A stretch of 64,000 nt of DNA, taken from contig CAWBAT010000006.1 of the NCBI GenBank assembly GCA_963786955.1, positions 928,001 through 992,000 on the forward strand, in the 5' to 3' direction. This document shows, in pieces, positions 2,433 through 59,771 of the stretch. The position numbers were made by a program, and so were the translations under genes. The number at the start of each line of letters is the position of its first letter. The stretch's first letter is position 1. Below the pieces are notes generated by a model. It was given only the letters and a program-made list of their open reading frames with translations, was not told the origin of the DNA and did no database searches. The DNA is from an uncultured Acidimicrobiia bacterium (lineage in GTDB: Bacteria > Acidobacteriota > Terriglobia > Versatilivoradales > Versatilivoraceae).

Positions 2433-3867
2433 GAGTTTTCTCATTTCTCAGCCTGTAGAATTGTTGCGTACGAAGAATTGCAAGGCGTGGACGGCACTGG
2501 TGTGCATACTTTTAGCGGCTGTTTCGGCTGGCCTGTCCCTTCCCATTCAAATCTACCTGATGATCATCGGTGGGCTCGCTACTCTTGGTACTGTTCTGGT
2601 TGCCCTTCTCGTTCAGACCAGGAATCCCACGCTGGGATTTGCGGGCCTCATTTTGACAGCGGCGGCGTTTCCATTCGAATTTCATGGCCCATCCAAATCC
2701 ATTCTGAGTTTCCCCTTTTTGATTGCAACCTATCTCTGTATAGGGTGGATTGTGGCACTTCTCGCCCGCAGTCACCATCAAGGGCTCGACTCCTCCCGCG
2801 TGGTGTATGCGGTGCTGGCTTTCATGATCGCGTCCATTATTTCTTTTGTGGCTGGACAGTATCCGTGGTTTCCAGTGGAGGGTGCGCCGTTGGGGGCTCA
2901 ATTGGCGGGTTTGGGACTCTTTCTTTTATCCGGCGGGCTCTTTCTGGCTGTCGGACATCAAGTCAGGAATCTTGCCCAGCTGAGGTGGCTTACCTGGTTG
3001 TTCCTGGGTGCAGGAGCGGTGAGCTGTTTTGCAGATGTTTTCTGGCTGGACTTCGTGAGCCGATGGACAAAGCCCGGATCCCTTGGCAGCCTGTTTTGGA
3101 CATGGCTTGTGGCTTTGAGTTTTAGCCAGGCCGCCTTCAATCTGCAATTGTCCCGGGCCACGAGAATATCCCTATACTGTTTGACTGGGCTGAGCCTTTA
3201 TCGCGGTTTTTTTCAATCCTTCGACTGGGCCTCTGGCTGGCTGCCACCACTGATTTCATTCGGAGTTGTCCTTTTCTTCCGGTTACCTAGAATTGCTCTA
3301 GGTCTGGCCTTGCTAGCAGCTCCATTGGGTTTGTTTCTTTCCACGGTATTACGGGAAGCCGTTGATGCCCATGAGCGATATAGCCTTTTGACCCGACTTG
3401 AAGCCTTGAGTGTATTAGGGGATGTTTTAGAAAAGAGTCCATTGATTGGTCTGGGCCCGGCCAACTACTTCCATTACGCAGCATTATTCCCAATCCTTGG
3501 ATGGTATACGAATTTCAGTTCTCATAACAACTACGTGGACTTGCTTGCACAAGTAGGCTTACTTGGTTTTCTTGCTTTTTGTTGGTTTATTTTTGAAATG
3601 GTTCAGTTGAGCTTGCGTGTGTACTCTTCCGTGCCTGGTGGCTTTGCACAGGCCTATCTTATTGGTTCCATAGGTGGTTTGGCCGGATCATTAGCTTCCG
3701 GGATGCTTGCCGACTGGATCATCCCTTTCTTCTACAATATTGGCATCCGGGGGTTCCGTTCGAGCTTATTGTTCTGGGTCTTCCTGGGAGGAATCCTCGC
3801 ACTGAAGCGAATTGTCTCCAATCCATTGGATGAACTAGAGCATTCGATGTCTTGTGAACCGCTTTAG
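2359..3867 (+). CDS. O-antigen ligase/Wzy polymerase-like membrane protein (start uncertain)
   Basis: Many TM helices. Periplasmic loop ...SPLIGLGPANY...SHNNYVDLLAQVGLLG matches the Wzy_C/O-antigen ligase motif. Confidence 0.82.
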   Translation: MAVLNRRQVMSQSGAARPSKSNIPRSFLISQPVELLRTKNCKAWTALVCILLAAVSAGLSLPIQIYLMIIGGLATLGTVLVALLVQTRNPTLGFAGLILTAAAFPFEFHGPSKSILSFPFLIATYLCIGWIVALLARSHHQGLDSSRVVYAVLAFMIASIISFVAGQYPWFPVEGAPLGAQLAGLGLFLLSGGLFLAVGHQVRNLAQLRWLTWLFLGAGAVSCFADVFWLDFVSRWTKPGSLGSLFWTWLVALSFSQAAFNLQLSRATRISLYCLTGLSLYRGFFQSFDWASGWLPPLISFGVVLFFRLPRIALGLALLAAPLGLFLSTVLREAVDAHERYSLLTRLEALSVLGDVLEKSPLIGLGPANYFHYAALFPILGWYTNFSSHNNYVDLLAQVGLLGFLAFCWFIFEMVQLSLRVYSSVPGGFAQAYLIGSIGGLAGSLASGMLADWIIPFFYNIGIRGFRSSLLFWVFLGGILALKRIVSNPLDELEHSMSCEPL

Positions 3868-56876: not shown

Positions 56877-57599
56877 TTAGTTTCCAAGGAAGACATTCAA
56901 CGTCAATCCGGCAACGTTTAAATGATTCGGAGTGGAATGGGAAGTATTTTGGTGCAAGTAATAGCCATCCAAAGCCCAATGGCGCTTGAATTGAAATTGC
57001 ACGCCAAAGGAATATTGGTTTTGAACCCAACTGTCATATCGAGTGTCATAGAAGAGTTCACCCCAGGCATAGGGATCAAACCGAATATGATGTACCAGGA
57101 ACGCCCGCTCAAGAGTCAAACGGTTTCGGTAACGGGTGGAATACTCCCCATTGATGAACCGCAATTCGACAAGGTTCCGATCTGACAACAACAGTCCATA
57201 GCGAGGATAAAAGCGTGGCGTGCCTTCGATGAGAACCCTGTTTTCATCGCTGGGACTCTTTTGCTCCTGTGTCGTTTGCCAGTAATTGATAGCCAACGCC
57301 AAAGACAAAATAGTTTTCCTTGTCACTGTCATAATGGGGCCGATGTTCTCGATTCACCGGCTTCAACTGAAAGTTAACTTGTGCGCCTTCAAACCATTGT
57401 AAATAAGAGGATTCACTCGCTGGTCCGAGTTCCACCCTATCAGGTTTAATCTCATGCCTGGTTCGAGCCGGACGTAGGCATCCGCCTCTGACCAAAGTTC
57501 TGCCCATGTTTCTGGCTGCTGGGCACGGGCGTTCGACGAAAAAGTCAGGAGAAGCAGAAAGCAGCCACTCAGTTGTAAAAGGATTCTTCTCCCAGCCAT
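56877..57599 (-). pseudogene. DUF2490-like outer-membrane beta-barrel protein, frameshifted
   Basis: Signal peptide from ATG 57599; three overlapping frames joined by shifts at about 57410-57445 and 57285; ENR, DRN..E.R, RYRNR and E.FYD motifs; aromatic C-terminal strand. Confidence 0.72.
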
Positions 57600-57611
57600 A
57601 GAATTTTTTTT

Positions 57612-58825
57612 AGCCACAAAAAGGCACAAAAGTCGCAAAGAGGTTACGGGGTCTTTTTGGCATCATGTGGCCGTCATTTCTAGTTGAGTCTCTTTCGATC
57701 CCTAAGCTTCAAAGATAATTACTGTTTCGCCTTCAATCCTACCTTACAAGAACGATACGCCAACATATGGAGCCCTTTTACTTTTATCTTGTTTTGCGTT
57801 TTTTGCGCTTCTTTGCGGCTCAAAAGTTTTAGCCGCAAAAAGGCACAAAAGTCGCATAGCGACGACGCAAATTTCTAGCATCACTTCGTCATGAATACTT
57901 AACAAGCCCAACTGGATCCATGGGCTTAAAAGATAGATATTGTTTAGACTTCGATCCCGCCTTACAGGAACAATACGCCAACATATGGGGCCCTTTTACT
58001 TATTTCTCTTTTTGCGTTTTTTGCGCTTCTTTGCGGCTAAAAGAATCTTGGGCGTAAAAAGGGCGTTAAGAACAGCTACCCTTTCGTCAAAACGTATTTG
58101 TGAATCTCTAATTTGGGTGCACCAAAATTGATGAGTAATCCGTGCTCAATTCGGCAAGCACGCAAATAACCCAAGATTTGAGCAATATGCTCCTCGGCTA
58201 TCGCCTTACAGGCTTTCAATTCAATAATCAAACAAGCCTCAACAAATAAGTCCGCACAATAGTCTCCCAATACTGTTCCATCTTCATCAATGACCTTCAA
58301 AGGGAATTGCTGATCGACCTTCAACCCTTGGTTGCGCAGGCGATGAGCCAGACCATTCTCATAAACCTTTTCTAGATGCCCATGCCGTAAATATTCATGG
58401 AGGGCAAAGCTGGTTTCCCTTATCTGGTCACAAAGTTGGAAGATGGGATCCTTCATTCATTCTGCCCGCTCAGCTTTTTATTGCTCAAAGGAATTATTGG
58501 CCGCAAAAAGGCACAAAAGTCGCAAAGGGACGACACAAAATTTCGAACAACACATGCTAGTAAGTCCTAATCAAATCCATCAAGATTTAACTCAAACAAT
58601 GACTAGGGATCGTTTCCTCTTGGATCTTGCCTCAGATAAAAGATAGAGCAATAAAATGGGATCCTTGTTTCATTTCACTTCTTGCGCTTTTTTGCGACTC
58701 TTTGCGGCAAATGAATTTTGGGCCACAAAAAGGCACAAGAAACGCAAAAATGGTAAAGGTCTTTTCCGGCAGCTTCGTAGCCTTCCCTCTGTGCCTCTTG
58801 CGCTTTTTTGCGACTCTTTGCGGCT
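57612..58825. repeat. Array of inverted-repeat-bounded units around the GxxExxY gene
   Basis: Forward arms at 57612, 57831, 58499 and 58721 (RGCCRCAAAAAGGCACAARARWCGCAWAR); reverse arms at 57792, 58010, 58681 and 58797; spacers of about 150 bp are mutually homologous. Confidence 0.92.
58076..58456 (-). CDS. GxxExxY protein (PD-(D/E)XK nuclease superfamily, PDDEXK_3)
   Basis: GHLEKVY signature, ADLFVE...IIELK nuclease motif, HIAQILGYL and GLLINFG. Confidence 0.92.
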   Translation of the reverse strand: MKDPIFQLCDQIRETSFALHEYLRHGHLEKVYENGLAHRLRNQGLKVDQQFPLKVIDEDGTVLGDYCADLFVEACLIIELKACKAIAEEHIAQILGYLRACRIEHGLLINFGAPKLEIHKYVLTKG

Positions 58826-58849
58826 GAAGAAGCAGTCGCAGCGCCAGTT

Positions 58850-58873
58850 GTAGCCGGGGACGTTGACCCCGGC
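58850..58873. repeat. GTAG REP-like hairpin
   Basis: GTAGCCGGGGACGTTGACCCCGGC stem-loop right after the array. Confidence 0.55.
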
Positions 58874-59015
58874 CGGCCCCAGCGGGGCCAGCTAATACAC
58901 GGACTTTTGCAACTTAGTACTTGTCTGAATGGTTTTACTTCAATGCCTCGGTGATGCAGCACAACGAAGTGGGACAGCGACAGCCTGCCGAGTTGTTACT
59001 CCTGCGCAAGCTGCT

Positions 59016-59771
59016 TCAGGGTGTGGGGACTACTCGATAGTAGACGCCGTTTGCGCCATAGGACGGCTGGAACCAGGTGTTGCCCAGTATGTAATAGGTT
59101 GTGCCGTTGACGGTAGCAGGGGCAGAGCCAACCGGCAGCGTCGCATAAATCCCGCCCATCACGTAAGCGGTGCTTGCCGCAGCCGCCCCGGCTGCGACAC
59201 CGGCGCTATAAGCGGTGGCGGTATTGGCACTGCCGGCAGCAACTCCGGCACTGTAGGCACTGCTCGTGGCTGCAGATGTTTTGGATGAGGCAACGGCCGC
59301 TCCGACCACGGCACCCGTAACGGCAGCGCCTGCCACCGCCCAGCCGCTGACGCAGTTGTAACACCCTGTTCCGTAATGAACCACTGTGGTCGGTGGATGG
59401 TATCCATAGTAGGCAGTAGGCGGATGGTATCCATAATAAGGCGTGGGAGGATGATACGCGGTGGCGCCATAGGGGGTGGTATGGGTCGCGCCATATCCGG
59501 CTTCGCCCGATGTGGTTCCTCCGTAGGTGTTCGTGTGGGTTGTGCCCCCGCCGTAGGCGTGCGACGTGCTGCCGCCGTACTCGTTAGTGTGAGAGCTACC
59601 CTCTCCATAGGTGTGCGACGTGCTGGTGCCATAGGCGCTGCTGTGACTCGTGGAACCATAACTGTGCGAGGTGCTGCCGCCGTAACGGTTCGCATGCGAG
59701 TAGGCTAAAGCTGACTCGCACGGTACGAGCACAATCATGAAACTTAAAATACAAATGACGATAGCTTTCAT
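59016..59771 (-). CDS. Secreted low-complexity His/Tyr/Gly/Ser/Thr-repeat protein with DUF6515-like C-terminus
   Basis: Signal peptide; repeated (H)xYGGxTS/T units; YHPP repeats; hydrophobic Ala/Gly segment; C-terminal TLP...VNGTTYY...WFQPSY...YRVVP; GGAGG RBS. Confidence 0.75.
   Translation of the reverse strand: MKAIVICILSFMIVLVPCESALAYSHANRYGGSTSHSYGSTSHSSAYGTSTSHTYGEGSSHTNEYGGSTSHAYGGGTTHTNTYGGTTSGEAGYGATHTTPYGATAYHPPTPYYGYHPPTAYYGYHPPTTVVHYGTGCYNCVSGWAVAGAAVTGAVVGAAVASSKTSAATSSAYSAGVAAGSANTATAYSAGVAAGAAAASTAYVMGGIYATLPVGSAPATVNGTTYYILGNTWFQPSYGANGVYYRVVPTP

Follow-up and report, generated by a model that had tools for sequence, protein, structure and literature searches.

What relation does a small nuclease gene bear to the inverted repeats among which it lies? 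The question is raised by a 64,000-nucleotide stretch of DNA from an uncultured bacterium (the whole stretch is called the window here), in which a gene of the GxxExxY type (protein family PF13366) sits inside an array of inverted-repeat units that spans 57608-58829. The window belongs to contig C6 of a 5.65-Mb genome, designated G000; a sister species of the same genus, designated G002, was used for comparison. An earlier note on this DNA had likened the locus to the repetitive extragenic palindromes (REPs) that are propagated by HUH-type REP-associated tyrosine transposases (RAYTs). The analysis described below points elsewhere. That the units and their relatives form a family of selfish mobile cassettes is very likely. 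For the window itself, the reading that we favor, with some reserve, is an old and partly decayed array of such a small selfish gene cassette, made up of one gene-bearing unit and four gene-less derivatives and operating by the mechanism proposed below.

Four inverted-repeat units around the gene were recovered by a repeat-pair search and an arm profile at the positions where the earlier note had placed them (Table 1). In each, a purine-rich left arm of ca. 28 nt is followed by an interior and then by the inverted arm. The left-arm family has four copies with start-to-start spacings of 219, 668, and 222 nt, and the right-arm family also has four. The arm pairs of the window are 19-34 nt long with a complementarity of 79-83%, and arms of this type have an internal period of ca. 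10 nt. In place of the 10-12-nt A/T linkers that the earlier note had drawn between units, the arms were found to reach 4-5 A/T bases further out, such that neighboring units nearly abut (2 nt between the arms of pair I3). The interiors are homologous but diverged, as had been noticed: 57697-57824 is 84% identical to 57915-58042, and unit 2 shares 76% identity with unit 1 over 220 nt and ca. 68% with unit 3. The right arms of units 3 and 4 are 100% identical over 29 nt. A degenerate arm pattern yielded 20 matches in the genome versus 2 with a reversed control; the arm array of the window is not a product of chance. When the genome was searched with the arm profile, 33 matches at E ≤ 10 were obtained, 8 of them within the window array; the further genomic copies that the earlier note had called for thus exist, some of them without a gene. 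Rfam was also consulted. Over 57000-59500, no family reached its gathering score, the only returns being microRNA-like noise at E up to 10, and over five other element loci nothing was returned except one tRNA.

The gene itself is a unit whose own arms have decayed in the window. It is counted as the fifth unit because its ortholog in the sister species has intact arms on both sides: in locus L015 of G002, arms at 2969-2998 and 3413-3444 directly bracket the gene at 3014-3394. That locus has the same flanking genes and is composed of a gene-less unit, the armed gene, and a second gene-less unit, followed by a DDE transposase gene. In the window, the remnant at 58017-58062 aligns to an arm junction at 72% (the D4 family of alignments covers 72-74%). 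The description of a lone GxxExxY gene between repeat units was therefore correct insofar as no other lies in the window, but the gene is one of the units, with decayed arms, and one of 20 PF13366 matches in the genome, 14 of which are full or near-full.

Pieces of the gene were also sought in the gene-less units. In the interior of unit 1, 40 nt (unit positions 95-134) aligned to the middle of the gene with z scores of 7.2-7.6 against shuffles. In unit 3, the segment 58653-58674, which adjoins the right arm, repeats the start-codon region of the gene (58440-58461) at 86% (family D6; z = 4.3). Units 2 and 4 gave no significant match to the gene in the same shuffle-scored alignment. The gene-less units of G002 retain pieces of the 3′ end and the middle of the gene. 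The retention of such fragments shows that the gene-less units are deleted or decayed copies of the gene-bearing unit. Their number at the orthologous locus is four in the window and two in G002. Judging from these comparisons, the array is old and has been inherited vertically since before the two species split, and the locus changes mainly by local duplication, deletion, and arm decay.

The product of the gene matched PF13366 over residues 7-119 with 104.5 bits (cut-off 22; E = 5.6e-30). Among 10 aligned paralogs, E29, D69, and E79 are invariant and K81 is nearly so; the catalytic residues are kept in nine of the ten. The AlphaFold model of the protein had a mean predicted local distance difference test score (pLDDT) of 94.6, and its closest folds in the PDB were Cas4 SSO0001 (template-modeling (TM) score 0.58), the nuclease domains of AdnAB/AddAB, and archaeal Holliday-junction resolvases (Hjc), with TM scores ≤0.59. 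No close relative of solved structure was found in a sequence search. The protein is thus predicted to be a minimal PD-(D/E)XK nuclease. It is 92% identical to its ortholog in G002, and the ratio of nonsynonymous to synonymous substitution rates (dN/dS) was 0.117 at a dS of 0.32, which is indicative of purifying selection. The family, which is large and multicopy, is listed as one of unknown function with "multiple transfers" between lineages in the portion of PMC3424549 that treats it, and a domain of the family is merely named beside a reverse transcriptase in an excerpt from PMC8934634.

The association of gene and arms recurs in the rest of the genome. At a strict threshold, eight of the 14 full or near-full PF13366 genes had bracketing or adjacent inverted arms composed of 8-10-nt subrepeats. 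Inspection by eye added five, with arms inside the ends of the open reading frame (ORF) or hairpins on both sides, for ca. 13 of 14; the sole copy with armless flanks is that at C3:228356. The closest paralog of the window gene (63% identical) has two gene-less units, 95% alike, on either side. Arms were also counted by type. The 9-nt type had 45 matches in 31 loci, of which eight contain a PF13366 match; the window type had 20 matches at E ≤ 1, eight of them in the window; matches of the octamer type, a copy of which is at C8:289177-289587, were confined to its two gene loci. Further clusters of window-type arms were located between housekeeping genes (transaldolase, phosphoglucomutase, histidine phosphatase), far from any copy of the gene, and contig C2 carries a four-unit gene-less array of arms of this type. 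Octamer-type and 9-nt-type elements occupy non-orthologous places in the sister species.

For a wider sample, 80 loci of the octamer subfamily were fetched by subfamily alignment; six were too near a contig end, leaving 74 that could be evaluated. The proteins encoded there are 66-87% identical to the copy in this genome, and their hosts, which belong to more than 12 phyla, include (by record titles) Terriglobia, Planctomycetota, Verrucomicrobiota, Chloroflexota, Desulfobacterota, Gammaproteobacteria, Nitrospinota, Lentisphaerota, and Armatimonadota. A bracketing inverted repeat with a score of at least 12 was present at 62 of the 74 loci, and one with a score of at least 16 at 44. At the lower threshold, the controls gave 3 of 128 for shifted windows of the same loci and, with shuffled flanks, 0 of 74. 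The tie between GxxExxY genes and inverted arms of their own, which had been posited from the single locus, is thereby extended well beyond it. In 16 of the 62, the best pair had the opposite polarity, being formed by arms of neighboring units, as is the case in the window. The 27 most compact elements span 417-455 nt, with the left arm ending at the start codon or within ca. 10 nt of it. Sampling of 301 genomes of the phylum recovered the clade of the window protein itself in 14, and periodic short-unit arms were present at 12 of 16 loci. Across phyla, gene and arms thus travel as one unit.

Arms and proteins were also compared for signs of common descent. At eight variable positions, and for the 33 of 74 elements that could be aligned in register, the two arms of one octamer element agreed in a fraction of 0.68 of cases, which was not attained in any of 5000 permutations, versus 0.44 between elements. 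On a quick maximum-likelihood tree of 62 proteins, the arm period changes 11 times (shuffled mean 20.6, minimum 16) and the core word of the arm 29 times (shuffled mean 39, minimum 33). Arm type therefore follows protein phylogeny, in line with the covariation for which the earlier note had proposed a test, a pattern that speaks for co-inheritance of gene and arms and not for arm recognition, as kinship alone can cluster them in this way. Plasmids are no evident vehicle in the collection that was searched, in which 5 of 72,556 records contain a relative, at 54% or less in every case. Four DNA runs from sediment metagenomes contributed only short pieces, most of them 88-95% alike, along with four joints of low support whose sides were <30 nt; no conclusion was drawn from them. 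Neighboring ORFs, delimited by a crude stop-to-stop call, were co-oriented with the gene in 38 of 60 cases upstream and 40 of 56 downstream, which is no more than the usual clustering of genes; around the array in the window, the neighboring genes all share the direction of the nuclease gene.

Movement was observed in the family with 9-nt (nonamer) arms. G000 has four full copies of ca. 650 nt and five internally deleted copies, all 85-93% alike, and two pairs of deleted copies have identical deletion breakpoints at different loci. At two of the deleted copies (on contigs C4 and C7), G002 has the two flanks joined without interruption (86-92% identity), and G000 has 411 and 431 extra bases there. 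A GC-rich palindrome core lies on both sides of the element in seven of the nine copies and on one side only at C8:196387 and C6:1065566. The first empty site has the ca. 13-nt palindrome core once; the second is more complex in that G000 has an additional copy of the palindrome. The targets of insertion are palindromes of the same repeat family as the REP-like sequence to the right of the window array (Table 1), a 73-nt repeat of which this genome has six more copies (92-95% identical) and the sister species more distant ones. The 9-nt-arm family is mobile, having inserted at new sites with duplication of the target, its non-autonomous derivatives included. The earlier note had proposed to compare filled and empty sites among close strains; between the two close species, these two insertions are the ones that were found. 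When empty sites were sought for the octamer-type elements, a full nonamer copy, and one more derivative, no clean junction emerged, the flanks being too diverged or other DNA lying between them. Outside the periodic arms, the family has an extra short terminal inverted repeat. These outer ends were found nowhere else in the genome; consequently, no other ORF is linked to them.

Among described elements, the closest relative of the GxxExxY cassette is the ORF-bearing intervening sequence of 23S rRNA. As characterized in the sections of PMC4990558 consulted here, the Coxiella intervening sequence is 428-444 nt long, has a terminal inverted-repeat stem of 28 bp, and carries three tandem heptamers before the start of its ORF; ribonuclease III (RNase III) cuts within the stem. 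Older proposals cited in those sections hold such elements to be transposon remnants or mobile elements. From the same sections, the S23p-bearing (PF05635) intervening sequences of Coxiella burnetii and Leptospira measure ca. 430-445 nt with a stem of 27-28 bp. The cassette type of the window measures ca. 440 nt with a stem of 27-30 bp. In both, approximately three short tandem repeats immediately precede the start codon of a single small ORF, and the rRNA intervening sequence is regarded in those sections as selfish, with its way of moving unknown. The two differ in their protein, which in the cassette is a predicted PD-(D/E)XK nuclease instead of a four-helix bundle; in the period of the subrepeats, which is 8-10 nt instead of 7 nt; and in their location, as none of 97 GxxExxY loci lies in an rRNA gene (the 23S gene of this genome is at C5:357151-360105).

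The genome also contains four-helix-bundle genes of the PF05635 family (rRNA intervening-sequence protein), and at seven of the eight loci inverted arms with a period of 7 nt enclose the gene, the whole spanning 480-710 nt (Table 1); the eighth has weak arms. None of these genes is within the 23S rRNA gene. In all, 23 clusters of periodic-arm pairs spanning 300-1700 nt were detected, five with GxxExxY genes or fragments and seven with four-helix-bundle genes. The longest ORFs of the other 11 are 85-468 aa, and these clusters look like ordinary genes between separate hairpins or like chance pairs.

The following mechanism is proposed. A cassette consists of a leader arm (approximately three tandem subrepeats of 8-10 nt), a PD-(D/E)XK ORF of ca. 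125 aa that starts at the leader arm or within ca. 20 nt of it, and the inverted arm at its 3′ end. In a read-through transcript, the two arms would pair into a stem of 27-30 bp that hides the ribosome-binding site and start codon and that could act as an RNase III substrate. The arms would let the transcript lose the unit, and insertions between genes could thereby be tolerated, in the manner published for the 23S rRNA intervening sequence that bears S23p. We give this part an even chance of being correct. In the predicted RNA folds of the octamer unit (z = -4.7) and of the G002 gene unit (z = -2.4), the arms pair into a long closing stem at the ends of the unit that covers both the start codon and the ribosome-binding site. 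The fold of unit 1 taken singly was unremarkable on either strand (z = -1.8), and a scan of 57300-59100 for sigma-70-like promoters returned no site. At the DNA level, the encoded nuclease would open target or donor DNA such that the unit is copied or moved, and gene-less units would use it in trans; we consider this role of the nuclease possible but somewhat doubtful. That symmetric cuts in the palindrome by the nuclease would fit the duplicated palindrome core is speculation. A more sweeping version, offered tentatively and in our estimation unlikely, would make GxxExxY the motor of the smallest autonomous bacterial mobile elements (ca. 440 nt), the protein being a repeat- or structure-specific nuclease that recognizes its own periodic arms or a palindromic target and moves full and gene-less units alike; together with the four-helix-bundle cassettes, these would constitute one super-class of "armed cassettes" tolerated via RNase III excision.

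Several observations weigh against a cassette driven by its own nuclease and tolerated through its RNA. The proteins of the mobile 9-nt-arm family have glutamine in place of the catalytic lysine, and, given the extra outer repeats as well, mobility may rest on those ends and an enzyme in trans; the paralog at C3:250934 has an intact catalytic site and similar arms. The occurrence of non-nuclease four-helix-bundle genes in equivalent arms means that such arms need no nuclease inside. Neither a target duplication nor an empty site was found for the window arm type or the octamer type. A locus that stays in place under strong purifying selection is no less compatible with a host-useful or addictive gene than with a transposase. 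On the sense strand of the gene, the arm mismatches comprise 41 G.T and 29 A.C (p = 0.19), with 49 of 119 not being wobble pairs; with no significant wobble bias, RNA-level selection is not demonstrated. In a rival explanation, the nuclease is cargo. The arms (and, in one family, the outer repeats) would then be moved in trans by an enzyme of the host or of another element, the protein would be kept for defense, addiction, or repair, and the four-helix-bundle genes would be a second cargo. The same arm design around an unrelated protein, the dN/dS of 0.117 at a locus unmoved since the species split, the substituted lysine in a mobile family with separate outer ends, and the many gene-less arms (23 of 31 nonamer-type loci lack a PF13366 match) are all in keeping with that explanation. 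However, the units contain no other ORF, the outer ends of the mobile family occur only on GxxExxY elements in this genome, and the catalytic residues are largely conserved among the paralogs. Further, each protein clade keeps its own arm type, which would not be predicted if one vehicle enzyme served them all. We judge the cargo explanation to be improbable, though by no means negligible.

Two other accounts fared worse than the selfish cassette. In a strict REP/RAYT-like system, GxxExxY would be a dedicated single-strand hairpin transposase that multiplies the palindromes at its flanks. The palindromic units with and without a gene, their clustering around the gene as well as their dispersal, and the copying of derivatives would suit such a system, but the enzyme is not of the HUH type, the arms abut and partly overlap the ORF instead of flanking it at a distance, and the gene-less units are deletion products of the gene unit and not an independent repeat serviced by it. 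Moreover, Y1_Tnp, the HUH domain of RAYTs, has 23 matches elsewhere in the genome, of which 11 lie by coordinate inside other, non-periodic inverted-repeat pairs (examples in Table 1); the nearest on the contig of the window is ca. 87 kb away. Genuine REP/RAYT-type systems are thus probably present in this genome alongside the armed cassettes, and the assignment of the window array to such a system, the central proposal of the earlier note, is very improbable: the array holds no HUH gene, its gene-less units derive from the gene unit, and its arms are built like the stem of an rRNA intervening sequence. The remaining account has no mobility at all. By 5′-3′ pairing, the arms would lock the translation of a toxic nuclease gene, and local tandem duplication would have produced the array. 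Both predicted folds, with their stem over the translation start, would agree with a lock, as would a window array that was inherited vertically with changes in copy number only. It conflicts with the insertions that have empty sites in the sister species, with the same element at non-orthologous loci there, with proteins 66-87% identical and bearing the same arms in more than 12 phyla, and with gene-less arms between housekeeping genes far from any copy. These contradict the non-mobile account for the family as a whole, and we find it scarcely credible; a translational lock could still describe the arms between moves.

The selfish cassette can also be placed among other classes of element. 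With REPs, their hairpin-forming doublets (REPINs), and RAYTs of the Y1 HUH class, it shares a dispersed palindromic repeat tied to a small gene among the copies, with gene-less copies outnumbering genes in some families; it departs from them in fold and chemistry, in arms that touch the ORF, in gene-less units derived from the gene unit, and in that the Y1_Tnp genes are elsewhere. A REPtron comprises a Y1 HUH gene (PF01797) flanked by repeats and an independent short palindrome. Here, the sole gene of the array belongs to PF13366, the units keep gene fragments, and the gene-less copies of the 9-nt family are internal deletions. Like insertion sequences and miniature inverted-repeat transposable elements (MITEs), the 9-nt-arm family ends in inverted repeats, duplicates its target, gives rise to multiplying derivatives with internal deletions, and differs in presence or absence between close species; for the window arm type, the inverted repeats are seen, and neither an empty site nor a duplicated target was found. 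Unlike insertion sequences, the cassettes encode no transposase of a known class, GxxExxY being the sole ORF, and the target duplication is a palindrome core of ca. 13 nt, seen in one family only. To our knowledge, all autonomous insertion sequences are larger than 440-650 nt. Possible parallels include TnsA of Tn7, Rpn-type nucleases, insertion sequences that target REP sites, and the fold-back inhibition in hok mRNA. As in free-standing homing endonuclease genes, the element is little more than a small nuclease gene; those genes, in contrast, have neither inverted arms nor multiplied gene-less derivatives, and no recognition site is known for GxxExxY. Spread or retention through cutting and repair from a copy of the element, as for TnpB in the part of PMC10690162 that bears on it, is conceivable. 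A reading as integron cassettes (compact promoterless ORFs accompanied by imperfect palindromes) was set aside because the ORF has an arm on either side and arms form both ends of a unit; no integrase search was made.

Table 1. Positions of the array units, the nuclease gene, and comparison loci. Plain coordinates are window positions; those with a contig prefix are genome positions.
Feature	Position	Strand	Composition	Basis or remark
Gene-less unit 1	57608..57825	.	left arm 57613-57641, interior ca. 150 nt, right arm 57792-57819	arm profile
Gene-less unit 2	57827..58042	.	arms 57832-57860 and 58010-58037	pair I2, 30 nt, 83% complementary
Gene-bearing unit, decayed arms	58047..58494	-	arm remnants ca. 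58048-58075 and ca. 58460-58492	
GxxExxY / PDDEXK_3 gene	58076..58456	-	126 aa	intact PD-(D/E)XK catalytic set E29, D69, E79, K81
Gene-less unit 3	58496..58713	.	arms 58500-58527 and 58680-58708	
Gene-less unit 4, short	58718..58829	.	arms 58722-58749 and 58796-58824, interior 46 nt	
GC-rich palindromic dispersed repeat (REP-like)	58847..58921	.		separate from the array
Armed PF05635 loci	C8:452283-452862, C6:465898-466478, C5:11711-12427, C4:382375-382863, C3:167424-167943, C8:340563-341042, C6:456711-457232			
Y1_Tnp examples	C2:96286-96966, C8:30464-31603, C3:281169-282259, C9:203622-204146			

The surroundings of the array were also recorded. To its left, the DUF2490 gene (56877-57638) is split into the overlapping ORFs 56877-57332, 57244-57507, and 57363-57638. 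Its ortholog in G002 is a single ORF of 250 aa (L015 2029-2781), and the version in the window is frameshifted, either as a pseudogene or through assembly errors. To the right, 59016-59771 (minus strand) encodes a 251-aa protein with a signal-like start and long repeats rich in Gly, Tyr, His, and Thr; it has no Pfam match. The neighborhood (DUF6526, DUF2490, the 251-aa Gly/Tyr/His-rich protein, and DUF2092) is duplicated at C5:17500-23500 (L016) with 80-85% identity, and the duplicate, which includes a paralog of the 251-aa protein, has a single lone arm at the matching place and a DUF1254 gene where the array would be. The transposase gene that directly follows the array in G002 (DDE_Tnp_1_4; contig C13, L015 3751-5148) is absent from the window.

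Other repeat arrays were encountered in G000. At C4:772400-774800 (L001 1400-3800), a PIN-domain gene and a small upstream partner (a VapBC-like pair) lie inside a 2.4-kb repeat array. This array is strand-asymmetric and A-rich, with 10-13 direct repeats of ca. 137-151 nt that contain arm-like words of 7 nt and 10 nt with no inverted partner. At least four further abundant families of hairpin repeats, with units of 129, 162-170, 74-76, and ca. 190 nt, occur on all contigs; their sequences are unrelated to the periodic arms.

Full-text searches, whose coverage did not extend to subscription journals, found no description linking the PF13366/GxxExxY family to repeats; the GxxExxY cassette is a widespread and apparently undescribed type. 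In genome annotation, it accounts for many arrays of intergenic hairpins and for spurious low-complexity ORFs. Being tied to a defined DNA architecture, to insertions with empty sites, and to the 30-year-old puzzle of the rRNA intervening sequences, an orphan family becomes a testable system. If the nuclease drives the movement, it would represent a novel type of transposase or homing enzyme, housed in an extremely compact element, and it may have potential as a small sequence- or structure-specific tool. Should the more sweeping version also prove true, with GxxExxY as the motor within a super-class of armed cassettes, it would account for the 7-10-nt tandem repeats that are dispersed in many phyla and would provide a function for two large orphan protein families.

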